Shown here: positions 8,867-40,055 of the stretch, piece by piece
Layout: every line of letters starts with the position of its first letter
How positions within the stretch are numbered: the first letter of the stretch is position 1
From: Halarcobacter sp.
GTDB lineage: Bacteria; Campylobacterota; Campylobacteria; Campylobacterales; Arcobacteraceae
Direction of reading: 5' to 3'
Assembly: GCA_963676565.1 (NCBI GenBank)
Contig: OY781089.1
Location: forward strand, 128,001-192,000
DNA length: 64,000 bases
Position numbers and translations under genes: made by a program
Notes under the pieces: model-generated
What the model saw: only the letters and a program-made list of their open reading frames with translations
The model's database searches: none
What the model was told of the DNA's origin: nothing

Positions 8867-10294
8867 TTATAATTTAGGGGGATTTTCTTTTCTTCTTTTT
8901 TTCCTTATAGAAGACCTTTTTGATTTAATATATAAAATTCTAATAATTCTTTTTATATTTATAAAAAACCTAGTTGTATAAGAAGCTTCAGTATGTTCTA
9001 TCTCTTCACCTAAATTTACATTTAAGGCATCACTTTTTTTAACAGATAAAATTTGTGAAGGGAAAACACTTCTATGACCTGTCATTAAAAAAGCAATAAT
9101 AATAGATAAAGCTGAATAATGGGCAACATTAATACCAAATAGTTCAACAGCCATAATCATAGCAGCAATTGGCGCACTTGTTGTCCCTGCTAATACACTA
9201 ACAAATCCTAAAGCTGCAAATAATGGGATATAACTATCAACTAAACTCCCAAAGAAATTACCACTTGTTGCACCCATATAAAAAATTGGAGTAATAACTC
9301 CTCCACTTCCACCAAATCCTAAAGTTAAAGCAGTAAACAAAGTTTTTAAAATAAAAGCATACCAAGGGACACTTTCATGGTCCATAGAACTTGCAGAAAT
9401 AGAATCTTTTATTGTTTCAAAACCTAAACCTAGATATTCATCTCCAAAGATTAAAGCAAGAATTACAATTAATACTCCACCTAAAAAAGCTTTTATAACA
9501 TAATGAAGATTAATTGATTTTGCAAGATTATGTATATATCTTAAAGTTGTAATAATAAAATCTGAAACTAGCCCAAAAAATACACCGGCTAAGATAACTT
9601 TTGCTATTAAAACATAATCAAAATCGAAGCTTACATAATATGCAATATCAAAGTAAGTATAACTTATTCCAAACATTTTTGCCACAAAAAAAGCAGAGAA
9701 TCCAGCAACAATTGAAGGTAATAAAATATCATACATCAAAGCACCAACAATAAGAATTTCAACTCCAAAAATAGCTCCAGCTAAAGGTGTTCCAAATACA
9801 GAAGCAAAACCTGCACTAATCCCACAAATAACCATTTTCTTTCTATCTCTTTTTGAAAACTTAAACATTGTTGCAATAAACGAAGCTGATGCAGCACCAA
9901 TTTGTGCTCCAGGTCCCTCTTTACCAACAGAACCACCAGCAAATATTGTAATAACAGTAGCCATAAGTTTAATTGGGACTACAGCAACATTCATTTTTCC
10001 TTGATTTTTATGAACCGCTTCAATAACTTTTTCAGTCCCATGTCCTTCAGCTGTAGGAGCAAATTTTTTTACAATAACAACTGTTAAAACTAAAGCAAAA
10101 GGTAGAGTATAGTAATACTCAAAAGGTAATTCACCCCTTTGATTTTCAAAGTATTCTAGAATTTTTAAAAAACCTGCAACAATAGCTCCAATCAAACCTC
10201 CAATAAGTGAGGAGAGTAGTATCCATTTTGTGATTGATGCGAACATTACAGTTTGTTCTGTAATGTGAGTTGTTACTTTTTTATTATTATCCAT
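8867..10294 (-). CDS. ClC family chloride/fluoride channel-transporter
   Basis: GGSVGKEGP and GGSGGVITP motifs, many TM segments. Confidence 0.9.
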   Translation of the reverse strand: MDNNKKVTTHITEQTVMFASITKWILLSSLIGGLIGAIVAGFLKILEYFENQRGELPFEYYYTLPFALVLTVVIVKKFAPTAEGHGTEKVIEAVHKNQGKMNVAVVPIKLMATVITIFAGGSVGKEGPGAQIGAASASFIATMFKFSKRDRKKMVICGISAGFASVFGTPLAGAIFGVEILIVGALMYDILLPSIVAGFSAFFVAKMFGISYTYFDIAYYVSFDFDYVLIAKVILAGVFFGLVSDFIITTLRYIHNLAKSINLHYVIKAFLGGVLIVILALIFGDEYLGLGFETIKDSISASSMDHESVPWYAFILKTLFTALTLGFGGSGGVITPIFYMGATSGNFFGSLVDSYIPLFAALGFVSVLAGTTSAPIAAMIMAVELFGINVAHYSALSIIIAFLMTGHRSVFPSQILSVKKSDALNVNLGEEIEHTEASYTTRFFINIKRIIRILYIKSKRSSIRKKRRKENPPKL

Positions 10295-27474: not shown

Positions 27475-28790
27475 TAATTTACCACTTCACCTTTTAAAGC
27501 AGTCCTTGTTGCAGCAGTTACTTTAACATCCACAAGTTTTCCTAGAAGTTCATCACTTCCTTTAACAAAAACTTGACAATAATTATCTGTAAATCCAGCA
27601 ACTTCTCCATTTGGTTTTAAAGTATCAAATAAAACAGTTACTGTTTTTCCAACATTTAAATCCATTAGTTCACTTTGATGCTCTTTATGAAGTTCAATAA
27701 CCTCAATTAATCTTTTACTTCCAATCTCATCAGGAATCTCTAAATCTTTTAATTCTAAAGCTTCAGTATTTGGTCTTGGAGAATATTTGAAATTAAAAAT
27801 CTGGTCAAATTTAACTTCTTTTATAACATCAATAGTATCTTGAAAATCTTCATCAGTTTCCCCAGGGAAAGCTACAATAATATCAGTTGTAATTCTAACA
27901 TCAGGAACCAAACTTCTTATTTTTTTAGCTCTTTTGATAAAACCTTCTTTAGAATATCCTCTTTTCATAGCCTTTAAAATAGATGTTGACCCACTTTGTA
28001 ATGGCATATGAATACATTTTGAGATCTTTGGATTTTTTGCAAACTCTTCAATAAATTCATCATCCATATGTAATGGGTGTGGTGAAGTAAATCTGATTCT
28101 TTCAAGTCCTTCAATTTTTGAAACCTCTTGAAGAAGTTTAGTAAATGAAGTTTTTTCTCTTTTGTCTGAGAATCTTTTCCCATAAGAATTTACATTTTGT
28201 CCTAGTAAAGTAACCTCTTTGGCTCCTTTAGCAACATCTTTTTCTACTTGATCAACAATCATCTCAATTGGAATAGAAATCTCATCACCTCTAGTTGCAG
28301 GAACAATACAGAAAGTACATTTCTTATCACACCCTATAGAGATGTTTACAGAAGTTTTATATAAATTGTGTCCGCTTTGAGCAAATTGGTAAGTTGAATC
28401 ATCATAATCGATATCAATCTCAACTGCACCTTTTTTATCAACAACATCTTTAATTTTTGAAATATTTCTAGCACCTAATACAAAATCAACATAGGGTGCT
28501 CTTTTCATAATATCTTCACCTAAATGTGAAGCTGTACAACCACAAACTCCAATTTTGGCATTCTCTTTTTTCTTTACATTAAATTGCCCTATTTCTGAAA
28601 AAAGTTTAGAAACAGGTTTTTCTCTAACTGAACAAGTATTAATAATAATTAAGTCTGCATCTTCCATTTTGTCAGTTGTAGAGTAATTTTTATGCTCTTT
28701 TAATTCAGCAATAATATGTTGGCTGTCAGTATCGTTCATCTGACAACCAAGTGTTTGTATAAATAGTTTTTTTTCTTCTTGTTTACTCAT
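27474..28790 (-). CDS. miaB: tRNA i6A37 methylthiotransferase
   Basis: TLGCQMN, NTCSVRE, GCDKKCTFCIVP, RFTSPHP, TRAM domain. Confidence 0.95.
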   Translation of the reverse strand: MSKQEEKKLFIQTLGCQMNDTDSQHIIAELKEHKNYSTTDKMEDADLIIINTCSVREKPVSKLFSEIGQFNVKKKENAKIGVCGCTASHLGEDIMKRAPYVDFVLGARNISKIKDVVDKKGAVEIDIDYDDSTYQFAQSGHNLYKTSVNISIGCDKKCTFCIVPATRGDEISIPIEMIVDQVEKDVAKGAKEVTLLGQNVNSYGKRFSDKREKTSFTKLLQEVSKIEGLERIRFTSPHPLHMDDEFIEEFAKNPKISKCIHMPLQSGSTSILKAMKRGYSKEGFIKRAKKIRSLVPDVRITTDIIVAFPGETDEDFQDTIDVIKEVKFDQIFNFKYSPRPNTEALELKDLEIPDEIGSKRLIEVIELHKEHQSELMDLNVGKTVTVLFDTLKPNGEVAGFTDNYCQVFVKGSDELLGKLVDVKVTAATRTALKGEVVN

Positions 28791-28811
28791 TAAGTTTTTT
28801 AATTCCTTATC

Positions 28812-29054
28812 TTATAAAGCATGAACCTCATACATATATTCATCATCAGCAAGTCCATATTTAACTTCTCTAAAATACACATTAAAACCTTCATCTTCCA
28901 AAGAGTCAACAAGCGCCATCATGTCTTTATGAGAATTATCTTTATCAAAATAAAATATTTTTTCACCTAAGTTTTTTAATTCTTCTTTAACTTTGTCTAG
29001 TTGTACTTTTTTTGGCTTTTCACTTAACTCATTTCTTGCAAGTAATAATTCCAT
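28812..29054 (-). CDS. HP0268 family protein
   Basis: FYFDKDNSHKD, FREVKYGL..YMYEVH; typical position next to miaB. Confidence 0.8.
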   Translation of the reverse strand: MELLLARNELSEKPKKVQLDKVKEELKNLGEKIFYFDKDNSHKDMMALVDSLEDEGFNVYFREVKYGLADDEYMYEVHAL

Positions 29055-29208
29055 CTCAATAAACCCTTATCTTTTTAAATTAGCTAAATAGTTTATCTTA
29101 AAATTGCTTTAATTTCTATAAAAGCTGTTTTTAGATAATATATCATCCTACTCTCACATTGAAAATCAAAACATTACATTTCAATGTTAAAAAAACAGAA
29201 GGTTACTA

Positions 29209-30384
29209 ATGGACAAAATAATAGATATTTTAGACTCTATTGCCTATGAAAAAGGTCTAAAAAACGAAGATGTTGAAACAGCATTAAAAGAATCGTTAAT
29301 TAAAACTGCCGAAAAGATGGTTGATGCAACTCTTAGATATGATGCAGAGATTGATAGAAAAAATAAAAAATTAGAACTATTCCAAAAAATTGAAGTTGTT
29401 GAAAATGGCGACGAAAGATTGCTAGAAGATGGAGTTGATCAATATGATAACATTATCAGTAAAGAAAACTTTATCTCAATTGATGAAGCAAAAGAGATTG
29501 ATGAAAGTTTAGAAATCGGAGACTTTGTAAACTACGATTTAGAATTTGAAAACATGGGAAGAAACGCTGCAACTATTTTGCACAATAACTTCGAATATAG
29601 AGTTCAAAGATTTTTAGAAGAATCACTACTAAGTAAATATAAAAATAAAATTGGAAAAACGATTAGTGGAACTGTAACAAGGGTTGATAGACAAGAAAAC
29701 ACCTTTGTAGAAATTGGTGAAGTTAAAGGTATGCTTCCAAGAAAAAGTAGAATCAAAGGTGAATCTTTTAGAGTTGGAGATACTGTAAAAGCTGTTGTTA
29801 GAGGTGTTAATATCGACAAAACAAATGGTTTAGTTGTTGAGATTTCAAGAACATCTCCAAAATTCTTAGAATCACTTTTAGCTTCTGAAGTTCCAGAATT
29901 AAAAGATGGAATCATCTCAATTGAAGCAAGTGCTAGAATCCCAGGAAGTAGAGCAAAAATTGCCCTTTTATCAACAGATTCAAATGTAGACCCTATTGGT
30001 TCTATTGTTGGGGTAAAAGGTGTTAGAATTGGTGCTGTTTCAAAACAATTAAGTGGTGAAAACATTGATTGTGTTGAATACTCAACAATCCCTGAAATGT
30101 TTATCTCAAGAGCTTTATCTCCTGCAATTATCTCAAGTGTAGTTATTGAAAAATATGCAGAGGGAAATGAAAAAGGTAAGGCAATTGTTACAATTCCAGG
30201 TGATCAAAAATCAAAAGCTATTGGAAAAGCTGGATTAAATATCAGATTAGCTTCAATGCTTACAAAATATGAAATTGAGTTAAAAGAGATTGGCGGAGCT
30301 TCTGTTCAAAGTGGAGATAAAAATAATTCACAAGAACAAGAAAAAGTAACAGATACAGCAAGTTTAGAGGCACTATTTAAATAA
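29209..30384 (+). CDS. nusA: Transcription termination factor NusA
   Basis: S1 and KH domains, EVPE, ARIPG.RAK, AIGKAGLNIRLA. Confidence 0.96.
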   Translation: MDKIIDILDSIAYEKGLKNEDVETALKESLIKTAEKMVDATLRYDAEIDRKNKKLELFQKIEVVENGDERLLEDGVDQYDNIISKENFISIDEAKEIDESLEIGDFVNYDLEFENMGRNAATILHNNFEYRVQRFLEESLLSKYKNKIGKTISGTVTRVDRQENTFVEIGEVKGMLPRKSRIKGESFRVGDTVKAVVRGVNIDKTNGLVVEISRTSPKFLESLLASEVPELKDGIISIEASARIPGSRAKIALLSTDSNVDPIGSIVGVKGVRIGAVSKQLSGENIDCVEYSTIPEMFISRALSPAIISSVVIEKYAEGNEKGKAIVTIPGDQKSKAIGKAGLNIRLASMLTKYEIELKEIGGASVQSGDKNNSQEQEKVTDTASLEALFK

Positions 30385-31784
30385 TGAAAATTGAAATCTT
30401 TGATTCAGTAAAAAAAACAAAAGTTCTATTTGAACCAATTAAAAATGATGAAGTAAGAATATATGTTTGTGGACCAACAGTTTATGACGATTCACACTTA
30501 GGACATGCAAGATCTGCGATTGCTTTTGATTTACTCCATAGGGTTTTAAAAGCTAATGGATATAAAGTTATTATGACTAAAAACTTTACTGATATTGATG
30601 ATAAGATTATCAAAAAAATGCACGAAACTAAAAGAAGTTTGGAAGATATTACAAGTCTTTATATCAATGCTTATAAAAGTGATATGGAAACTTTAAATAT
30701 CTTACCAAACTCACTTGAACCAAAGGCAACACAAAATCTTCAAATAATGATTGATATGATTGAAGATTTGATGTCAAAAGATATAGCCTATAAAATCTCA
30801 GATGGTGTTTATTTTGATGTATCAAAAGATAGTGAATATGGTTCTTTATCAAAAAGAGCTAGTGACGAAAACTCAATTGCTAGAGTTGAATCAAACACTG
30901 AAAAAAGAAACCCTAGTGATTTTGCACTTTGGAAATTTGAAAAAGCAGATGATGTAGCCTATGAGTCTCCTTTTGGGAAAGGAAGACCTGGATGGCATAT
31001 TGAATGTTCTGCAATGATTAATAAACATCTAGCTTATAAAGATGAGCCTTTTCAAATAGATATTCATGGTGGCGGTGCTGACCTTCTATTTCCTCACCAT
31101 GAAAATGAAGCTGCTCAAACTAGATGTTCAACAAAATCACACCTTGCAAAATATTGGATGCACAATGGTTTTGTAACAATTGATGGTGAAAAGATGAGTA
31201 AATCTTTAGGGAACTCATTTTTCCTAAAAGATATCTTAAAATCTTATTCAGGTGAGGTTGTTAGATTTTATCTATTAACTGCACAATATAGAGCAAACTT
31301 TAACTTCAATGAAGAGGATTTAATCTCTTCTAAAAAAAGACTTGATAAATTATATAGAGTTAAAAAAAGAGTTTATGGTGGTGGAAAATCTGCTGTAAAC
31401 AAAGAGTTTAAAGAGTCTTTACTAACTGCTTTAAATGATGATTTAAACTCAGCAAAAGCTATCTCAATCATAGATGAGTATATAAATAAAGCCAATGAAA
31501 CACTTGATAAAGAACCAAAAAATAAAGCTTTCAAAAAAGAGCTTGTTGCAACTTTGGAGTTTATTGATGAAGTGATTGGAATTGGTGGAAGTGATGCTTA
31601 CTCTTATTTTCAATTTGGAATTTCAAATGAAGATATCTCTAAAATTGAAGAACTTATTGAAAAAAGAACTGAAGCTAAAAAAGCAAAAGATTTTGAAACA
31701 GCTGATAAAGTTAGGGATGAATTAACAGCACTGGGAATTTCTGTAATGGATACGCCTAATGGTGTTGTTTGGGAAAAACTGTAA
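30384..31784 (+). CDS. cysS: Cysteine-tRNA ligase
   Basis: CGPTVY, HLGH, GRPGWHIECSAM, KMSKS. Confidence 0.97.
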   Translation: MKIEIFDSVKKTKVLFEPIKNDEVRIYVCGPTVYDDSHLGHARSAIAFDLLHRVLKANGYKVIMTKNFTDIDDKIIKKMHETKRSLEDITSLYINAYKSDMETLNILPNSLEPKATQNLQIMIDMIEDLMSKDIAYKISDGVYFDVSKDSEYGSLSKRASDENSIARVESNTEKRNPSDFALWKFEKADDVAYESPFGKGRPGWHIECSAMINKHLAYKDEPFQIDIHGGGADLLFPHHENEAAQTRCSTKSHLAKYWMHNGFVTIDGEKMSKSLGNSFFLKDILKSYSGEVVRFYLLTAQYRANFNFNEEDLISSKKRLDKLYRVKKRVYGGGKSAVNKEFKESLLTALNDDLNSAKAISIIDEYINKANETLDKEPKNKAFKKELVATLEFIDEVIGIGGSDAYSYFQFGISNEDISKIEELIEKRTEAKKAKDFETADKVRDELTALGISVMDTPNGVVWEKL

Positions 31785-31797
31785 AATTAGTTTTTCT

Positions 31798-31820
31798 CAT
31801 ATCCTTTTATAAGGTATATG
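31798..31820. terminator. Hairpin between cysS and the end of the array
   Basis: CATATCCTT-TTAT-AAGGTATATG. Confidence 0.5.
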
Positions 31821-31822
31821 TA

Positions 31823-32224
31823 CTATTCACGAGTATATTCATTTGCCATTGTTTCTAATTCTAGTACACGCTTTATGTTTTGTTCCATTGGACAAAAATA
31901 ATACATTGGTGAACCTACATAATTTCCCATCAATTTGCAATGGATATTTCTATATTTGAGCCATGCTATTTGTGAGTTTTCAAATTGCTTTGCATCATCT
32001 ATTGAACGCTTTGATATGTTTTTATAAATAATTTTATATAGTCTATTCATCTCTTTTTTTGCAAATGCAGATGTATTTTCACTGCACATAGCAACAACCG
32101 TATTATTTATTTGACCTTCTTCATGAATACAATCATTGTAATTTTTCTCATATTTATTTTTTGTTTCAGCAAATAAAATAAAAGGCATTAATGCAATAAA
32201 TAATAGTAAATTTGTGACCTTCAT
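31823..32224 (-). CDS. LprI/DUF1311 family secreted protein (last cassette)
   Basis: Signal peptide, C...MC...MNRLY, SQIAWLKYRNIHC; AAGGAG RBS. Confidence 0.8.
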   Translation of the reverse strand: MKVTNLLLFIALMPFILFAETKNKYEKNYNDCIHEEGQINNTVVAMCSENTSAFAKKEMNRLYKIIYKNISKRSIDDAKQFENSQIAWLKYRNIHCKLMGNYVGSPMYYFCPMEQNIKRVLELETMANEYTRE

Positions 32225-32243
32225 ATATTACTCCTTTGTATCA

Positions 32244-32295
32244 ATATAACGCCTACCTCAGCCGCTGAAGATCGGCTCAGAGTCTCTTGTTAGCC
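32244..32295 (-). other. attC site, GC-rich short type (52 bp)
   Basis: GGCTAAC-AAGAGACTCTGAGCCG-ATCTTCAG-CGGCTGAG-GTAGGC-GTTATAT. Confidence 0.75.
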
Positions 32296-32668
32296 ATTTT
32301 CTAGTTATTATAGGCAACCATGTAGCCCCTATAGCACACAGCTGAAAATAGGCTAACCGGTACGGGTGAGCCCAGCCACCCGAGTAGCCAACATCAAAAG
32401 CCAGCCACACAACAAATGTGGAACTTGAAGCCAAAGCCGCAATCAGCACCCTTTCTGGAAATCTCAGTACAGCAAAACCCTCTAATACCGCCAATATTCC
32501 GAACCACGCTGTAAAAAAGCCTAAGGTTAGCCCCCAGGAATACCCACCTCTGTATTCTCTACCTATAGCTTCCGCCACGAAGTGGCCGACTCCATATATC
32601 GCGGTCAGAAGAAGCACCCTGATTATTGGCCGTAACAAAAGCAGATAAACTATGCGCTTTGTCATCAC
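32258..32668 (-). CDS. GC-rich 4-TM hypothetical cassette protein
   Basis: Hydrophobic ORF; 33/60 and 30/60 GC in two hand-counted lines; reads into its attC. Confidence 0.7.
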
Positions 32669-32736
32669 GATTAACCTTTGAAACGCTTAGTTAATAAATC
32701 GGAAACTTTCATGTAAATCCTTCTTATAATTTTAGT

Positions 32737-32805
32737 GTATAATGTTTAAAATGAGCCGATAAATTTCCCTCAGGGTAATTTATTGGCTCCTCTGATTTGT
32801 TAGAC
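32737..32805 (-). other. attC site, 69-bp family (R' GTT changed to ATT)
   Basis: GTCTAAC-AAATC-AGAGGAGC-CAATAAATTACCC-TGA-GGGAAATTTATCG-GCTCATT-TTAAAC-ATTATAC. Confidence 0.88.
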
Positions 32806-32808
32806 GTT

Positions 32809-33693
32809 TTATAATTCAAATCTAAATTCTTCTGGATGTTCATCATTAGGATAGTACGCTTTTATTTTGTATACATTTGTTTTGATTACATTTTCATCAA
32901 TATTTATTTCTTTGTCTACCAATAATCCAAACAGCCATGGTCTTTCAAATTTTTCAATGTATTCAAATGAAATGAGCTTTCCTTCTTCCGTATCAACTTC
33001 ATTAATATTTATTATATTTGATATTTTAACTAATTCAGTTAGAAAAATTAATACACTTTCATCAATATATAAAGAAGACCCACCAATATCTTTTTTTGAG
33101 CCCATATCATCTAGAATATATGCTTTTGCTAAGGCTGTATTCATTTGAAGTTCTTTAAGATTACTTATTACAATTGGATTACCTGTTCCTTTTGCTATAT
33201 TAGAATAACCACCTTTAGGTCTTGTATAATTTAAAACGAAATCATCAATTCTTGCCTCACTAAAAGTATATTCAGCTTTTTCACCAAATGCAATTACAGT
33301 TCTTGCACCTGGCAAATTATTTGAAATCTCTGATTTCATAATAAATACATGAGACATAATAATATCTCTAAGCCATAGCTCAATACCATGGAGAATATTT
33401 ATAGCTTTATCCATAATATTGTTTTCAATGAAATATGTTTTGATAACTCCATCGTTTAACACAAACATATAACTATTTGATGGAGAAAAATGTCTACTAT
33501 GAATTTTGTAAAATTCATCTAATCTATTAGTGATTTTTAACCAATCTTTTTTAGATAATTTCCAATTTGTTTTTGTAAAATGAGAACCAAATCCTAATAA
33601 GTCAGACCATGCACAAAGATTTAAGGATATTTGAAAACCCTCTTTATTTTGCAGTTTATCTCCTAAAGGACTAGAATACTTATTACTATACAT
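32809..33693 (-). CDS. Hypothetical protein, divergent class III nucleotidyl cyclase-like
   Basis: AWSDLLGF, FVLNDGV, ARTVIAFG, ALAKAY motifs in cyclase order. Confidence 0.55.
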   Translation of the reverse strand: MYSNKYSSPLGDKLQNKEGFQISLNLCAWSDLLGFGSHFTKTNWKLSKKDWLKITNRLDEFYKIHSRHFSPSNSYMFVLNDGVIKTYFIENNIMDKAINILHGIELWLRDIIMSHVFIMKSEISNNLPGARTVIAFGEKAEYTFSEARIDDFVLNYTRPKGGYSNIAKGTGNPIVISNLKELQMNTALAKAYILDDMGSKKDIGGSSLYIDESVLIFLTELVKISNIININEVDTEEGKLISFEYIEKFERPWLFGLLVDKEINIDENVIKTNVYKIKAYYPNDEHPEEFRFEL

Positions 33694-33870
33694 TTATATA
33701 TCAATCTTTTTTCCACTTAACTTGAAGTAAACAAATCCAGCACTCACTAACGCTATTACAAAAATAATTCCTGTTTCTTCTTTTGCTGGGTTACCTACTA
33801 GACTTAAAAGTCCAATAAATAATCCAAAAAATATAACAATACCTATAGTTCGTGCAAAATTTTCTTTCAT
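33694..33870 (-). CDS. 58-aa two-TM protein (below the ORF track cutoff)
   Basis: GAAGGA RBS, MKENFARTIGIVIFFGLFIGLLSLVGNPAKEETGIIFVIALVSAGFVYFKLSGKKIDI, TAA directly followed by the next ATG. Confidence 0.75.
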   Translation of the reverse strand: MKENFARTIGIVIFFGLFIGLLSLVGNPAKEETGIIFVIALVSAGFVYFKLSGKKIDI

Positions 33871-33886
33871 TTTATTCCTTCATATG

Positions 33887-33921
33887 ACGTTATCGGGTCG
33901 CCGCAGGCGAGCCGATAACGT
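33887..33921. repeat. 35-bp GC-rich hairpin overlapping an attC R' box
   Basis: ACGTTATCGG-G-TCGCC-GCA-GGCGA-G-CCGATAACGT. Confidence 0.85.
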
Positions 33922-33981
33922 TTAAAATGAGCCGATGAATTGCCCACAGGGTAATTTATTGGCTCCACTGATTTGTTATGT
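33913..33981 (-). other. attC site, 69-bp family (both core triplets intact)
   Basis: ACATAAC-AAATC-AGTGGAGC-CAATAAATTACCC-TGT-GGGCAATTCATCG-GCTCATT-TTAAAC-GTTATCG; 8-nt L'' with an extra base versus 7-nt L'. Confidence 0.92.
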
Positions 33982-34755
33982 TTTTTTCTTATTTATAATT
34001 AAGTTATAAGCTTGTACTTTATAAAAGTCTAGCATTACTTCTTGCCCCTTTTTGTTTTTATCATTAATTTTCTTTAGTTTTGCAAGCTCATTCGCATTTT
34101 TACCAGTTAATTCAAAAGCTTTTAAATACATAGTTATATTATTAGGGTTCTCTATTCTAAAAGTATTCAAGCTTTTTTTATCTTTATTGTTAATTTTAAT
34201 GCCTACAAATACATGACCACCTTCTTCATTTCCATTTTCATCAATAAAAGACTTACGATGAAAAATATAAGTCTCATACCCAATATAACTCAACAGTGCA
34301 GCTGCAAGAATTGATTGATCTTCGCAATCTCCTAACTTTGTTTTGTAAGTTGCATTTATTGATTTTAAGATATCCTCATTTTTTTCATCTTCTTGGTATT
34401 TAACTTCATAAATCATAAAATCCAATACTTTTTTTAATTTATCCTTTTGAGACATATCGTTTTTAATTCCTATTTCAATTGCAATACTTTTTACATTTTG
34501 GATATTAGAATTTACATAATTTGCATATTCTTTCATTTCAATTTCAGAAAGAATATTTTCTATTTTATTTTTAGAATAATTTTGTAATCCATATTGATAA
34601 AGAATATTTTCTTGTTCTTGTATAGTTTTTGCTTTGTTTAATTTATTTTGAATTGATAAAAAACTATTTTGTTCTTGTATAGTTTCATTATCACCTAATA
34701 CATAAATTATAATTAGTAATAAAACTGCTATTGCTATTAATATGTTTTTTTTCAT
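33976..34755 (-). CDS. Transglutaminase-like (Cys-His) membrane-anchored cassette protein
   Basis: GDCEDQSILAAALL and GHVFVGI; stop TAA lies within the R'' box. Confidence 0.8.
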   Translation of the reverse strand: MKKNILIAIAVLLLIIIYVLGDNETIQEQNSFLSIQNKLNKAKTIQEQENILYQYGLQNYSKNKIENILSEIEMKEYANYVNSNIQNVKSIAIEIGIKNDMSQKDKLKKVLDFMIYEVKYQEDEKNEDILKSINATYKTKLGDCEDQSILAAALLSYIGYETYIFHRKSFIDENGNEEGGHVFVGIKINNKDKKSLNTFRIENPNNITMYLKAFELTGKNANELAKLKKINDKNKKGQEVMLDFYKVQAYNLIINKKKT

Positions 34756-34800
34756 TTTTAATCTTTCCTCTTAAAAAATAATTGAAACTGCAGACATTAA

Positions 34801-34869
34801 ACATAACGTTTAAAATGAGCCGATGAATTACCCACAGGCTAATTTATTGGCTCCACTGATTTATTATAA
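34801..34869 (-). other. attC site, 69-bp family (R'' AAC changed to AAT)
   Basis: TTATAAT-AAATC-AGTGGAGC-...-GCTCATT-TTAAAC-GTTATGT. Confidence 0.9.
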
Positions 34870-35156
34870 GTTACTGACTTGAAATGTTCTACTATAGGAA
34901 AAGGATCATAAAAATGATGAAGCAGTGTTTTCCATTCTTGATATTTTTCAGAACCTCTAAAACCTTCCGTATGGTCTTCTAATGTCTCCCAATTTACCAG
35001 TAAAATATATTTATTTGGTGTTTCTATGCATTTTTGTAATTGATGTGAAACATACCCTTTCATTTTTGAAATAATGGCTTGTGCTTTTTCAAATGCAATT
35101 TCAAAATCATTTTCTTGACCAATCTTTACATCTAAAACTGCTACTTCTAATATCAC
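34839..35156 (-). CDS. Antibiotic biosynthesis monooxygenase (ABM) family protein
   Basis: MILEVAVLDVK, LLVNWETLEDHTEGFRGS, LLHHFYDPFP. Confidence 0.85.
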   Translation of the reverse strand: MILEVAVLDVKIGQENDFEIAFEKAQAIISKMKGYVSHQLQKCIETPNKYILLVNWETLEDHTEGFRGSEKYQEWKTLLHHFYDPFPIVEHFKSVTYNKSVEPIN

Positions 35157-35173
35157 TTTATTTCCCCTTTGAT

Positions 35174-35192
35174 TTATAACTCTTTGTTAAAT
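35174..35192 (-). other. Collapsed attC (R''-5 bp-R')
   Basis: ATTTAAC-AAAGA-GTTATAA at the gene end; GTTATAA matches the end box of the next cassette. Confidence 0.65.
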
Positions 35193-35500
35193 AACTGATT
35201 GCTACCAATTACTTCATAGACTTTAACTTCTGTATCAGGTTTAATGCGAAATTTTTCGTCTTCTGGATAAAGAACAGCTTTATACAAATTATCACCTGTG
35301 TATCGTTTCATAATATCTAGTTCTTCCCAATGTGATACGAATGTAATTTCAATCTCACCATTTAACTCACGTTTTAGAACATGATACCCTATACACCCGT
35401 CAATATTTTGAGTATCTTTTATACCTGTTTCTGAAAGGTAATTAATAAATCCATTTGCTGTCTCTTTAGGGCAAACACATTTCCATTCTCGATGATACAT
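35174..35500 (-). CDS. ABM-like dimeric alpha-beta barrel protein
   Basis: R.W.., TGI...GC.G..VLKR, SHWE, AVLYPEDEKF; ATG 35500 with AAGGA RBS. Confidence 0.75.
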   Translation of the reverse strand: MYHREWKCVCPKETANGFINYLSETGIKDTQNIDGCIGYHVLKRELNGEIEITFVSHWEELDIMKRYTGDNLYKAVLYPEDEKFRIKPDTEVKVYEVIGSNQLFNKEL

Positions 35501-35520
35501 ACTATTCCTTTGCAATTTTT

Positions 35521-35587
35521 ATATAATATTTAAATACACCAATAAAGTGCCGCAGGTACTTTATTAGTGTGCTATGATTTGTTATGT
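35521..35587 (-). other. attC site, 67-bp variant (R' GTT changed to ATT)
   Basis: ACATAAC-AAATC-ATAGCACACTAATAAAGTACC-TGC-GGCACTTTATTGGTGTAT-TTAAAT-ATTATAT. Confidence 0.8.
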
Positions 35588-36303
35588 GCTTCATTTTCGT
35601 TTAAGTTTACTTTGATTATTTCTTCATTATCTTTTCTTTTAATTAATAAAGTTGCAATGGAAAAATTTTTAACACCTCTATACTCTTCAACATTTTTTTC
35701 GCCAAATATAAAATAACCTTCTTCGTCAAGTTTTTTTATTTGGTTATCAAATTCTAAGCCTATATTAATTTTATCTCGAATTTCTAAATCACTACTGATT
35801 TCACCATAATCAATAAATGTTTGTAATGTACTTCCAATATAGTCAGCTTCATCTTTTGAAATTATATTATCGTAATCGACCCTATATCCCATCACATCAG
35901 ATAAGATATTCATTAACTCTTTCCCAGATGAGATTCTTACTAAAAATTTTATTTCTTCTATATTTTTATTGCCATCAAGTTCTTTTTTTAAAGTCTTTTG
36001 TACCCAGTTTTCATGATTTTGTTTCATATATCTTAATATTTCTTCTGGAAAAGAATCTATTAAAGTATCAATTTCTTTGTGATGATTTCTACATAATAAA
36101 ATCAAGTTATCAAATGTATCATAATCATTTAAATTTGGCTTATGTCTTGGTCCTTTTGATTTGCTACTTATAATATGACATTCTTCACCAATATTTAGGT
36201 TACTATCTGTTTCTTGTTCTGTAATTAGTTCGATTTTACAGATAGCACATCTATTACCTGATTTTGCCCAAAGCATTTTTCTAGTTTTTTCTGATATTGC
36301 CAA
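35572..36303 (-). CDS. HNH endonuclease with unrecognised C-terminal domain (first cassette)
   Basis: LWAKSGNRCAIC, ECHII...GPRH, NLILLCRNHHKEID; TTG start at 36303 after AGGA. Confidence 0.85.
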   Translation of the reverse strand: MAISEKTRKMLWAKSGNRCAICKIELITEQETDSNLNIGEECHIISSKSKGPRHKPNLNDYDTFDNLILLCRNHHKEIDTLIDSFPEEILRYMKQNHENWVQKTLKKELDGNKNIEEIKFLVRISSGKELMNILSDVMGYRVDYDNIISKDEADYIGSTLQTFIDYGEISSDLEIRDKINIGLEFDNQIKKLDEEGYFIFGEKNVEEYRGVKNFSIATLLIKRKDNEEIIKVNLNENEAHNKS

Positions 36304-36334
36304 TCTACTAATTCCTATTTTATTTTTAAATCTC

Positions 36335-36353
36335 ACATAACTATCTATTGAAT
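36335..36353 (-). other. attI-like simple site at the head of the array
   Basis: ATTCAAT-AGATA-GTTATGT (7-5-7); GTTATGT is the exact complement of the first cassette's ACATAAC. Confidence 0.6.
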
Positions 36354-36357
36354 ACCC

Positions 36358-36397
36358 ATTATATAAATAAAGCACTTAAATCCACTTATTTATTATA
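36358..36397 (-). promoter_or_regulatory. Candidate cassette promoter(s)
   Basis: Two minus-strand TATAAT hexamers at 36358-36363 and 36392-36397. Confidence 0.4.
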
Positions 36398-36456
36398 TAT
36401 TCTTAAAAGAGCATATTTTAGGTATAGCTTCTAAAATGTTGGATTTTTAGAGAATC

Positions 36457-36577
36457 GAAAATTCATATTTTTATTAAAATCAAGGCAAAGAGAATTTTTC
36501 ATGAAGGAGTTTACTGTAGTAAATGACTGATTAAAGAATTTTATTTAACGAAGATTCTGATAAAAAGATGGATTTTC
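36457..36577. repeat. 120-bp imperfect palindromic (MITE/RPE-like) element
   Basis: GAAAATTCATATTTTTATTAAAATC pairs with GATTCTGATAAAAAGATGGATTTTC; apical TTTAC-TGTA-GTAAA. Confidence 0.7.
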
Positions 36578-37099
36578 CCTCATCATACATTTTAATATCT
36601 CATAAGTTTTACTAACATCATATGTAGCACTATGATAAGATTCTTGGTCAAAATCTATATTATAAAAAATACAAGTCTCATCTAGTTTTGGATTTTTTAT
36701 TCTCCCATTTTTATTTAAAGCTTTTACAATATGCTTATTCTCTTTCATAGTACAAATATGATTTTCAAAGGAAGCCAAGCCTTCGACTCTTGCAAGCTCA
36801 AAACTTATATTGTGAGCAACTAAAGTTTTTGCATCTTCACAAAATTTTACAAAGTCCTCATCCTCTTTAAAATATGAGGCATATTTTTCTTCACTTTTAT
36901 TTCTATGTTCAAGTATTAATTCAGGGGTTAATCTATGAACTTGAAAGGCGTAATAATTAACTGGATATCTTGAAAGATAATATCTATGAAATTTGTCTAC
37001 AACTTTTAACTCATTATTTTGTATTTGAACTTTAACTGCAGCTGCTTCTATAACGTCATGTGGGTTTAAAGTATTTGTTTCGAAGTCTAATATAATCAT
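36545..37099 (-). CDS. DEDDh 3'-5' exonuclease
   Basis: IILDFET, LVAHNISFE, HSATYDV; start reassigned to ATG 37099. Confidence 0.88.
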   Translation of the reverse strand: MIILDFETNTLNPHDVIEAAAVKVQIQNNELKVVDKFHRYYLSRYPVNYYAFQVHRLTPELILEHRNKSEEKYASYFKEDEDFVKFCEDAKTLVAHNISFELARVEGLASFENHICTMKENKHIVKALNKNGRIKNPKLDETCIFYNIDFDQESYHSATYDVSKTYEILKCMMRENPSFYQNLR

Positions 37100-37301
37100 A
37101 GTGCAATTATATTCAATAAAATGTAAATAATATGTAAGAAAATAAGCACTTTCCACAAATTTTTAAAGAGTTTTAGAATTATTCAAAAAAAAATGGATTT
37201 TTCCTTTCAATTTTATTTATTTTTTGATTTTTTTTCATAATACTTAGTTATAAAATGTGCCTGACTAGCATATATGGTTAAACAAAAAATAAAAAAGGAC
37301 A

Positions 37302-37811
37302 ATGATGTATTACCAAACTGCAGACTTATGTGATTTGAATCAAGATAAAAAAATTCAAGTATTATCCCCCAACTTTAAATCTTTTGGAGGGAAAAAAGGT
37401 TTTCAAGGAAGGGTCATAACTATAAAACTTGATAAAAGTAATTGGGATTTAATTGATATTTTAAAAAATGAAGATGGAACAGGAAAAGTTGTTGCTATTG
37501 ATGTTGATGAAGCTTATTATGGAGTTGTGGGTGATAAACTATCAGCATTTGCAGCAAAAAACAACTTTGTAGCTATGATTATAAATGGATATGTTAGAGA
37601 TACTAGAGAAACTGTTAAATTTGATATTGGTTTATTTGCTTTAGGAACTTGCCCACTTAGAAATTTTGAAAAAACAAAAGGTATTAGAGATATTGAGCTA
37701 AACTTTGGTGGAGTAACTTTCAATAATGGAGATTATGTTTATGCAGATGAAGATGGAGTAATAGTTTCATCTATCGAGCTTGACACAAGTGATGCCCCTA
37801 TAATCTCTTAA
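37302..37811 (+). CDS. rraA: RraA/HMG aldolase family protein
   Basis: TADLCD, FGG..F.G, VGD, GYVRD, YADEDGV. Confidence 0.85.
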   Translation: MMYYQTADLCDLNQDKKIQVLSPNFKSFGGKKGFQGRVITIKLDKSNWDLIDILKNEDGTGKVVAIDVDEAYYGVVGDKLSAFAAKNNFVAMIINGYVRDTRETVKFDIGLFALGTCPLRNFEKTKGIRDIELNFGGVTFNNGDYVYADEDGVIVSSIELDTSDAPIIS

Positions 37812-37893
37812 TACATTAAAAAATTATTCAAGTTTTTCTTATTAAATATAAAAAATTTAAGTATAATTCGAAAAAATTTAATAGGATAAAAAC

Positions 37894-38691
37894 TTGGATA
37901 AAATTAAATCCCTTGTAGAAGCAAAAAAGTTTCAAAACTTTATTATTGTACTTATCATTTTAAATGGTATCTCAATGGGTCTAGAAACCTCAAAATCAGT
38001 TATGTCAAGCTATGGTAGCATACTTCATGCTTTTGATGTGTTTGTGATTTCTGTCTTTACTATAGAGGTAACTCTTAGAATAATTGCCCATAGATTATCT
38101 TTTTTCAAAGACCCATGGTCTTTATTTGATTTCTTTGTTGTGATTATCTCACTAATTCCATCAAGTGGAAGTTTCTCCGTTCTAAGAATCTTAAGAGTTC
38201 TAAGACTTTTTAGACTTATTACAGTAGTTCCACAAATGAGAAAAATTGTTGCTGCACTAATAAGTGTTATTCCTGGAATGATTTCTATTATTGGACTTAT
38301 GAGTTTAATATTTTATGTTTTTGCTATCATGGCTACATCTTTATATGCAGAAACTTTTCCCCAATGGTTTGGAACTCTTGGAGAATCATTTTATACCCTA
38401 TTCCAAATTATGACTTTAGAATCTTGGTCGATGGGAATTGTAAGACCTATAATGGAGCAACACCCACTAGCTTGGGTCTTTTTTATTCCATTTATATTTG
38501 TGGCAACTTTTATTATGATTAACCTTGTTGTTGCAATAATTGTAGATGCAATGAGTATAATAAAAGAAGAAGAGATTGAAAAGATAGAAGAAGTAAAAAC
38601 TTCTGAAAGTGAATTGAAAACTGAAATCAAATCTTTACAAGAAGAGATTAAAGAGTTAAAACATCTAATTATAAAATCAAATAGAAAGTAA
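37894..38691 (+). CDS. Bacterial voltage-gated sodium channel (NavAb-like)
   Basis: S4 [12 protein letters not shown], filter TLESWSM, C-terminal coiled coil. Confidence 0.93.
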
Positions 38692-38712
38692 ACCCTAATT
38701 AGGGTTTACTTT
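38685..38712. terminator. Perfect 28-bp palindrome spanning convergent stop codons
   Basis: AAAGTAAACCCTAA-TTAGGGTTTACTTT. Confidence 0.7.
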
Positions 38713-39489
38713 TTTTATTAGTGATGGAGTATACCCAGAATATCTTCTAAAAACTTTTATCATGTATGATTGGTCAGAGAAACCACACTCATAGGCTATA
38801 TCAGACAAAGACATATCAGTTTTTAAAAGTTCTCTTACTTTATTAACTTTTTTTATTTGAATAAAATGGGAAGGGGAAATACCAAAGTTTCTTTTAAACT
38901 CCCTAGAAAAATGGAACCTTGACAAACCTGCATTTTTTGATAAATCATCCAATGAAATATTTAGATCCTTTATATTTGCATCTATAAAATCTATTGTTGA
39001 AGAAAAACTTTTTGTAGTTTTTTTATCTTCAATTATTTGATTCTCTTTAATTGTTGAATGGTATTTTAATATATAATCTAAAAAATCAAATATTGCATTA
39101 TCAACGGCTAAATCATTTGTCCCTTTAGTTTCAAAAGTTTCAAACATAGTGATAAACAGATACGAAGCTTTTTCATCATCTATCAAACTGTTAAAATGAA
39201 TCGTTTCTAAACTATCCTTTTTAAGTATATCTTTTGCGATAGAGTTAACCAAAGAAACAGTTGGCATAATATTTAGATGAGACCATGTACTATTATTTGT
39301 TGTGTGTATCTCATATGGGTTTACTACTTGAATTATTCCAGGCACTATTTTATGCTTTTCTTTTTCATTTGCAAAAAAGTGTGCACCTTCATATACTAAA
39401 CTAATAGTATACTCTTCATGAAAATGCTTAGTTAAAGTAACATTTTTAAAATTGTTGTTAACATAAAATATATCGCTCATATTTTTCAA
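38695..39489 (-). CDS. AraC family transcriptional regulator
   Basis: HFHEEY cupin, LSRFHFSREFK, IAYECGFSDQSY. Confidence 0.93.
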   Translation of the reverse strand: MKNMSDIFYVNNNFKNVTLTKHFHEEYTISLVYEGAHFFANEKEKHKIVPGIIQVVNPYEIHTTNNSTWSHLNIMPTVSLVNSIAKDILKKDSLETIHFNSLIDDEKASYLFITMFETFETKGTNDLAVDNAIFDFLDYILKYHSTIKENQIIEDKKTTKSFSSTIDFIDANIKDLNISLDDLSKNAGLSRFHFSREFKRNFGISPSHFIQIKKVNKVRELLKTDMSLSDIAYECGFSDQSYMIKVFRRYSGYTPSLIKKVNPN

Positions 39490-40055
39490 TTTTCTTTTAA
39501 AACTCTTTTTGAAGTATCATAAACAAACTCATAATAGTTGTTATTGTTAAACTCGAACTCTTGAATAACTTCAAGTCCCATTTTTCTTTTGTGAGCTTCG
39601 TATGATCTTGGATTAATTTTATTTACAAAGGTAACTAATATCTCATATTTTTTTGACATTTCATCTAAAGCAAAATCAAATAGTTTTTCTAAAAGTCCAC
39701 TACCTCTATATCTTTTATCTATACAAACAGGTCCATATTGGTATGAATTATCTATAGTGATTTGTTTTCCAAGATATTGTAAATTTGGTAAATCTTTTAT
39801 CATAAATGCAAACATTGGCCATTTTGACCAATACTGCCACGATGCAGACATAACATACCCAACAACTTCACCATTATCAACTGCTACAAAAATACCTTTT
39901 TCTTTTTCTATAATATCTTCTAATTGTTCTTTTGAAAAAGCTGTTGTAACAAAACCATCTTTTTTATCTTCTTCATCTATTGTATCAACTTGATATTTAC
40001 TATGTAGTTTTAAAATATTTTCTACATCTTCAAAACTTGCTATTTTTAAAACCAT
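39486..40055 (-). CDS. GNAT family acetyltransferase
   Basis: YGPVCIDKRYRGSGL, NPRSYEAH. Confidence 0.85.
   Translation of the reverse strand: MVLKIASFEDVENILKLHSKYQVDTIDEEDKKDGFVTTAFSKEQLEDIIEKEKGIFVAVDNGEVVGYVMSASWQYWSKWPMFAFMIKDLPNLQYLGKQITIDNSYQYGPVCIDKRYRGSGLLEKLFDFALDEMSKKYEILVTFVNKINPRSYEAHKRKMGLEVIQEFEFNNNNYYEFVYDTSKRVLKEN

Follow-up and report, generated by a model that had tools for sequence, protein, structure and literature searches.

We analysed a 64,000-nt window of the chromosome of a Halarcobacter species (Campylobacterota, Arcobacteraceae; GenBank assembly GCA_963676565.1, contig OY781089.1, positions 128,001 to 192,000 of the forward strand; G000 in our genome set) and, within this window, a run of eight co-oriented minus-strand open reading frames (ORFs) between cysS (30384-31784, plus strand) and a DEDD exonuclease gene (36545-37156, minus strand). 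The ORFs lie as described in the initial annotation, which had been made from the sequence alone and whose call of an integron array was right. The array is a cluster of attC sites lacking an integron-integrase (CALIN), as the term is used by Cury et al. 2016 (PMC4889954) and for IntegronFinder 2.0 (PMC9024848). The minus-strand stretch 31797-36436 is very probably the remnant of a chromosomal integron, consisting of an attI site and about six cassettes with four canonical attC sites and one doubtful one, from which the integrase gene intI has gone. The features are collected in Table 1.

Table 1. Features of the cassette array in window coordinates, in the order of transcription. Families were called by Pfam search; scores refer to the covariance model R1 described in the text; aa, amino acids.
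Feature	Position	Strand	Boxes or content	Family, score or remark
attI-like site	36335-36436	-	core R box GTTATGT 36335-36341	crossover between G and TT
Cassette 1	35527-36340	-	HNH endonuclease gene, attC A	
HNH_2 ORF	35572-36375	-		Pfam HNH_2; likely true start ATG 36276
attC A	35520-35588	-	R'' ACATAAC 35581-35587; R' ATTATAT 35521-35527 (A replaces conserved G)	52.4 bits, E 1.8e-8; plus strand 12.4 bits
Cassette 2	34807-35526	-	ABM-like and ABM genes, attC B	
ABM-like ORF	35174-35515	-		ABM-fold by Pfam
ABM ORF	34839-35156	-		Pfam ABM
attC B	34800-34870	-	R'' TTATAAT 34863-34869 (AAT replaces AAC); R' GTTATGT 34801-34807	66.4 bits, E 1.9e-11; plus strand partial 21-bit match
Cassette 3	33919-34806	-	transglutaminase-like gene, attC C	
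Transglutaminase-like ORF	33976-34755	-		Pfam Transglut_core
attC C	33914-33982	-	R'' ACATAAC 33975-33981; R' GTTATCG 33913-33919	72.4 bits, E 9.6e-13
Cassette 4	32743-33918	-	GC-rich palindrome, 58-aa ORF, 294-aa ORF, attC D	
58-aa ORF	33694-33870	-		no family
294-aa ORF	32809-33693	-		no family
attC D	32736-32806	-	R'' GTCTAAC 32799-32805; R' ATTATAC 32737-32743 (A replaces G)	65.1 bits, E 3.6e-11; plus strand 25.3 bits
Cassette 5 (tentative)	32250-32742	-	stump of an 80-aa ORF, 136-aa membrane ORF, putative short attC E	
136-aa membrane ORF, high-GC	32258-32668	-		no family
Site E (putative short attC)		-	R'' GGCTAAC 32289-32295; R' GTTATAT 32244-32250	core motifs, weak stem
Cassette 6 (tentative, last)	31797-32249	-	LprI-like gene	no attC of its own
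LprI-like ORF	31823-32224	-		Pfam LprI

The attC sites were detected with a covariance model (R1) that was built for this analysis and is distinct from IntegronFinder's attC model. R1 combined a hand-written structure with nine attC sites from outside the locus: five from the complete integron of one congener (G088), two from the integron of another (G104), and two from the guaA locus of the genome studied here. Run on the window with filters off, the model matched four sites (A to D), all on the gene strand and each just downstream of an ORF. Scores were 52-72 bits on the gene strand against 12-25 bits on the opposite strand at the same four places, and the top score in the rest of the 64-kb window was just 16.2 bits (E 0.93). 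The CALIN criterion calls for at least two attC sites within 4 kb, and these four matches provide them.

An attC site is expected to fold, over some 55-140 nt, into a hairpin that is imperfect: it has L boxes, central spacers that stay unpaired, and an extra base in L''. On the minus strand, sites A to D share the layout R''(7)-5-L''(8)-stem/loop-L'(7)-6-R'(7), which is the geometry that the annotation had proposed. They are 69-71 nt long and fold into hairpins, with spacers of 5 and 6 nt and L''/L' boxes of 8/7 nt; the predicted fold of attC C has an energy of -11.5 kcal/mol for the bottom strand versus -6.4 kcal/mol for the top strand. When 36 sites from 13 sources were aligned, 86.8% of the cells were paired and compensatory changes occurred in 17 of 24 pairs. 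These values come from an alignment fitted to the model and are therefore biased toward structure; they were matched by none of 500 shuffles, and slid controls were 31-43% paired.

The ORFs had been described as separated by attC-like palindromes, and this holds for four of the seven ORF gaps as judged by R1. The gaps left without an R1-supported site are those between the ABM and ABM-like genes, between the 58-aa and 294-aa ORFs, and after the LprI-like gene, downstream of which R1 found no match. Between the ABM genes, the motifs ATTTAAC (35186-35192) and GTTATAA (35174-35180) coincide with a local, non-significant match (12.5 bits, E 5.6), possibly a vestigial attC. We considered this junction and site E as attC sites; lacking R1 support, both are kept as tentative. 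A loose geometric finder (at least 5/7 for R''/R' and at least 6/7 for L''/L') returned 508 plus-strand matches in the window and was useless in such AT-rich DNA. A MAFFT alignment of nine candidates misaligned site E and the attI, and both were left out of the model. An Rfam 15 scan of 28000-40000 gave no match at E ≤ 1; we know of no attC family in Rfam.

When a circular cassette integrates, the bases at its start end up complementary to the cassette's own R'' box. The HNH cassette starts with GTTATGT (36335-36341) and matches its R'' box ACATAAC at 7/7 positions, and the transglutaminase cassette does the same with identical box sequences, both as originally claimed. The match is 6/7 for the ABM pair and 4/7 for the cassette with the 58-aa and 294-aa ORFs. 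For the ABM cassette, the annotation had paired GTTATAA with TTATAAT at 6/7. That sequence does exist, at the junction between the two ABM genes with its non-significant R1 match, and the R' box of site A, ATTATAT, fits TTATAAT equally well as the cassette start (6/7). Over five arrays, the three variable positions agreed completely in 13 of 18 cognate pairs versus 27 of 306 non-cognate pairs. All five cognate pairs of the complete G088 integron match at 7/7.

The R'' and R' boxes of attC sites bear conserved AAC...GTT triplets (Cury et al. 2016, PMC4889954). Five of the eight triplets in the array are canonical, with ATT in sites A and D and AAT in site B, versus all 16 in the G088 and G104 integrons together and all 10 in G088 alone. 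We read the mutated triplets as decay. Besides these three triplets, the signs of decay would include one scrambled boundary, a site E that R1 does not recognise, and a last cassette without an attC.

Upstream of the HNH gene, a palindrome had been read as one more attC, and the array had been given an end at 36353. The palindrome belongs instead to an attI-like site, through which that end coordinate cuts; the earlier account of a cassette array without an integrase stands, but it had overlooked the attI, which is still present. A conserved block extends to about 36396, and a weaker similarity to the intI-attI spacer extends to about 36436. In an alignment with G088, the site matches the sequence that runs from intI to the first cassette; identity ends right after GTT, the core reading GTTATGT in the window and GTTGTAT in G088. 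It is 86-89% identical to copies within about 190 nt of intact IntI genes in G088 (89%) and G096, and in G106 a further copy in this identity range is some 500 nt away from a fragment of IntI. G104 and G087 also keep the proximal 26 nt or so beside their intact IntI genes. Across 11 aligned copies, similarity vanishes after GTT(A), and TATATAAT is invariant in all 11. These alignments support a reading of 36335-36436 as the attI docking site of a lost integron. The GTG annotated as the start of the HNH ORF (36375) falls within this site, and ATG 36276 is the likely start, giving a protein of 234 aa (35572-36276). Expression of the array probably starts from a conserved TATAAT inside the attI, at about 36365-36372.

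No integrase was found. In the complete 3.34-Mb genome, the NCBIfam model for the integron integrase (TIGR02249) had no match over its cut-off (best 50.4 versus 265 bits), and the best tblastn match to the G088 IntI was a Xer-like gene at 2.2 Mb (47.8 bits, 24% identity). The gap between the last position of attI similarity (36436) and the exonuclease gene (36545) is just some 110 nt. An IntI remnant was considered between the attI and the exonuclease gene, but very relaxed tblastn of 36300-37300 gave chance-level matches only. A complete integron has an intI with its specific added domain beside the attI, and none was detected here. With no IntI in the genome, the array should now be static, frozen in its present state. 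The genome-wide result fits the earlier inference that the integrase has been lost or acts in trans, and the wider interpretation, in which IntI built the array, is supported. None of the three findings that the annotation had named as counting against it, an absence of attC model matches among them, was made.

The genome set covers 184 genomes of the family, one per species, and the surroundings of the locus were compared over the 24 congeners (25 genomes of the genus with G000). The nusA-cysS segment is kept in all 24 congeners, and the content downstream of it differs. In at least seven of them (G087, G092, G099, G100, G101, G103, and G107), cysS is directly followed by the ion-channel gene found here at 37894-38691, and the locus is absent from most congeners. 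The exonuclease gene and an RraA-like gene (36545-37811) do not stand at this position in most congeners, and an exonuclease homologue occurs elsewhere. Since these two genes are also missing here from most congeners, the segment from about 31.8 to 37.8 kb is an island, and it is shared only with G086 and G106, to which similarity resumes at 31796 and 31788, respectively. The comparison across relatives of the interval between cysS and the exonuclease gene, which the annotation had suggested, thus revealed variable rather than invariant content.

G106 has the attI and a single unrelated cassette. The sister species G086 has the same attI, the HNH cassette (98% protein identity), and attC A, followed by a cassette of the MNT/HEPN type with a short attC abutting cysS. 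The two genomes are continuous at about 90% identity from attC A through the attI to the exonuclease gene; the match is near-perfect up to the R' box of attC A, and the sequences are unrelated past it. In each genome, the cassette after this junction has an R'' box that matches its own start (GTTATCC/GGATAAC in G086). Neither genome has an IntI by TIGR02249. The second cassette of G086 (L023 3769-4429) encodes a nucleotidyltransferase of 98 aa and a HEPN/DUF86-like gene split in two short ORFs, and looks like a broken toxin-antitoxin-type cassette.

A recognisable attI lets the history of the locus be read from this comparison. IntI would have inserted each circular cassette by recombining the folded attC with the attI between G and TT, which would be why the first six bases of a cassette complement its own R'' box. 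The intI gene would have been lost before this species and G086 diverged, because both share the same sequence upstream of the attI. Cassettes would have been exchanged afterward in at least one precise event, exactly at the attC R' box and presumably by an IntI encoded elsewhere that acted in trans, and the triplets would then have begun to decay.

Integrons proved common in the family. An IntI over the curated TIGR02249 cut-off was found in 44 of the 184 genomes; among the 24 congeners, seven have a full-length IntI over the cut-off and five have fragments only. The IntI of G088 scored 395.5 bits against the cut-off of 265. Five cassettes lie upstream of it on the opposite strand, each closed by the same type of palindrome as in the window. 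Three genomes of other genera (L013, L014, and L015) have one R1-type site each beside IntI, in the expected orientation.

The genome studied here contains three attI-like copies, at the cysS locus, in an array at guaA, and at radA. The guaA array (G000:C1:2607219-2610185) comprises an attI-like site (2610122-2610185), minus-strand cassettes, and three R1 attC sites without an integrase; the start of its first cassette, GTTAGTC, matches the R'' box GACTAAC at 7/7. The radA copy (G000:C1:2659038-2659121) has a complete intI-attI spacer without intI and is followed by ORFs of 353 aa and 263 aa, and no attC was detected there. In the genus as a whole, 31 attI-like copies were found in 15 of the 25 genomes, with up to five orphan copies per genome. 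One copy in G087 retains the first intI codons, with two copies of an element of about 480 nt in place of the gene. This structured element, of about 440-480 nt, recurs directly upstream of attI-like sites in G087 (L022 5170-6400), G106 (L024 3921-4363), and G104 (L026 ~9415-9560); an Rfam scan of L022 and L024 gave no match to it.

It is barely credible that the palindromes are ordinary intergenic repeats unrelated to integrons, such as terminators or elements resembling repetitive extragenic palindromes, and that the cluster is a plain genomic islet. They do stand downstream of ORFs and form hairpins, and short AAC/GTT motifs are common in an AT-rich genome, where the loose geometric scan matched hundreds of places. 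However, R1 gave only nine matches at E ≤ 1 in the complete genome: the four window sites, one plus-strand echo (E 0.55), three sites by guaA (2,607,219-2,609,635), and a marginal one (972,043). A repeat search recovered an imperfect palindrome of about 70 nt in three copies (at 32739, 33915, and 34803; about 80% mutual identity), and an nhmmer profile of these similar copies matched only at the cysS and guaA loci. Three terminator-like sites were called, none of them attC A to D. The annotation had named repeats that occur genome-wide as ordinary terminators as the finding that would speak against it, and the repeats behave otherwise. The strong strand asymmetry of the R1 scores, the presence and expected orientation of the same family beside bona fide IntI genes, and the specificity of the start/R'' complementarity to the own cassette likewise argue for attC sites. 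It is also very unlikely, if somewhat less so, that an IntI elsewhere dropped the cassettes at a secondary site outside att sites (attG-type), with no platform ever at the locus. Cury et al. 2016 (PMC4889954) name such integration among the ways in which CALINs arise, Loot et al. report that IntI efficiently catalyses insertion at places other than att sites, and there is no intI pseudogene at the locus. Yet about 100 nt of attI-like similarity stand at the head of the array, with a junction exactly at GTT, where a secondary site predicts none, and an attI at this locus is common to three species.

Several results weigh against a remnant integron or narrow what can be claimed for it. Sites B to D are close relatives of the training sites of R1, a narrow model with an effective sequence number of 2.94, and their matches would indicate homology to the attC family of the integrons of the genus more than an independent structural detection or one by a general attC model. 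Neither site E nor the site between the ABM genes has R1 support, and one of the four cognate boundaries in the window is poor (4/7). Where other genera encode homologues of the 294-aa protein or the HNH protein, R1 matched at one of 10 loci and not adjacently, a result that says little either way given the narrowness of the model. A consensus promoter scan called no site in the attI; the scan requires a -35 box and was uninformative (24 promoter-like sites versus 32.4 expected). Promoters of the host phylum often lack a -35 box. The action of an IntI in trans is suggested by one pairwise comparison, and differential loss from a larger ancestral array might also explain the difference between the two genomes; such loss would itself need precise excision. 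Just three of the 31 attI-like copies have an IntI match within 1 kb, and some copies sit inside arrays in tandem (G104 and G101), so they are not simply the attI of one platform. The scarcity of copies beside an IntI match and the tandem copies, together with the three copies in the genome itself, also favour a rather doubtful but possible reading in which the attI-like element is no relic but a portable, multi-copy landing pad and promoter module kept by genomes without IntI. The attI region of the genus would then act as an integrase-independent module, a docking site of about 60-100 nt with a built-in TATAAT promoter placed at several loci and within arrays. The invariant TATATAAT in 11 copies would fit, as would the fact that G000 and G086, with a common flank that lacks intI, differ in their cassettes exactly from an R' junction onward. 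If this were so, genomes without IntI could acquire or shed cassettes each time an IntI became available in trans, and the junction with G086 would be a trace of it. Against this, several copies keep the full intI-attI spacer and even the first intI codons (the own radA copy, G087, G104_d, and G101_b), and they resemble platforms in decay more than a module under selection, and the conserved triplets are decaying in the window array.

As a remnant integron, the locus resembles other CALINs. Of the 279 CALINs counted by Cury et al. 2016 (PMC4889954), half belong to genomes that lack IntI, and 95% have no intI pseudogene nearby; the average number of attC sites per CALIN is given as 5 to almost 6 there and for IntegronFinder 2.0 (PMC9024848). 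The array studied here likewise has no intI nearby or genome-wide and no pseudogene, is small, and carries mostly unannotated cargo. It differs in that its attI is recognisable thanks to the intact IntI of congeners, whereas the surveys, as they describe their searches, could not seek attI sites outside classes 1-3. It also shares its attI family (89% identity), its attC family, and the transcription of cassettes away from the attI with the complete integron of G088 (IntI, attI, and at least five cassettes), which has an intact IntI and canonical sites where the array here is missing intI and has partly mutated sites. Like the sedentary chromosomal integrons of the Vibrio type, it is chromosomal and has homogeneous attC sites (B, C, and D share about 80% identity with one another and 90-99% with attC sites of congeneric species), and a toxin-antitoxin-type MNT/HEPN cassette occurs in the array of the sister species. 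However, it has only four or five attC sites and no integrase, and it stays below the sedentary thresholds of >10 or >19 attC sites given in the same two sources; the alternative mark of a sedentary integron is its presence in every genome of a species, and the set used here covers one genome per species. In Xanthomonas, chromosomal integrons with a decayed intI are described as inherited within the genus at a fixed locus (10.1101/2025.06.18.660453), as here; intI is wholly deleted here and there are several attI copies per genome, and this comparison serves as a lead only.

IntegronFinder 2.0 (PMC9024848) places 93% of complete integrons in Gammaproteobacteria, and its Table S1 lists one complete integron in Halarcobacter bivalviorum and CALINs in Halarcobacter ebronensis, Arcobacter anaerophilus, Malaciobacter canalis, and Aliarcobacter faecis. 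The annotation had called integrons much less characterised in Campylobacterota than in gamma- and betaproteobacteria; as an argument for rarity this was overstated, given these entries for Arcobacteraceae and the IntI count in the family. Our literature search turned up no publication that discusses chromosomal integrons in Arcobacter and its relatives. Because integrons are common in the family, where loss of the enzyme is frequent, an array without an integrase is no surprise. Only two features go beyond the routine: the orphan attI sites in several copies, and the evidence that cassettes were still exchanged once intI had gone. The genus could serve as a natural system for studying how CALINs originate and whether they remain substrates for integrases acting in trans.

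The cargo consists of ordinary accessory genes. Among them, the N-terminal 100 residues of the HNH protein matched PADLOC models of HNH effectors (1e-25 to 2.7e-27), which include CBASS-type (cyclic oligonucleotide-based antiphage signalling system) and other defence effector nucleases; the C-terminal residues (about 135) had no match in these searches. From this similarity, the HNH cassette may by itself encode a defence system of one gene. Cargo that includes such a nuclease, similar to effectors of anti-phage systems, is in keeping with the view that chromosomal arrays are reservoirs of accessory and defence genes (10.1101/2024.07.02.601686). Homologues of the HNH protein were found in nine of the 184 family genomes, and those of the 294-aa protein in five, its own included, with none in the 24 congeners. 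The 58-aa and 294-aa ORFs had no family match in Pfam and further family searches, and the two ABM-family ORFs showed no similarity to each other in a pairwise comparison.

The 136-aa membrane ORF has a GC content of 0.45-0.50 versus about 0.28 around it. The stretch 31927-32683, which covers part of the LprI-like gene and this high-GC ORF, is 98% identical to G087:C1:964367-965122, whereas the G087 core genes from nusA to cysS are only 82% identical to those of the window genome; this difference in identity points to a recent horizontal transfer. The LprI-like gene travels with cassette 5 in G087. G087 also has an intact 80-aa ORF, of which the window has lost about 238 bp. Cassette 6 directly adjoins the terminator hairpin of cysS.

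In cassette 4, the 5' end is probably rearranged, because its start and R'' box match at only 4/7. A GC-rich, near-perfect palindrome (33885-33922, GTTATCGG...CCGATAAC) lies directly after the R' box of attC C. It is present in a single copy in the genome and in none of the relative loci fetched. We weighed it as an attC or as a member of a repeat family and dropped both; it may be the stump of an emptied cassette. At the other end of the array, a stretch of about 119 nt (36458-36576) with inverted ends (36457-36481 and 36553-36577) begins about 20 nt from the end of attI similarity and overlaps the 3' end of the exonuclease gene. Several congeners carry copies with 80-83% identity elsewhere in their genomes; this genome has only one further copy, a partial one.

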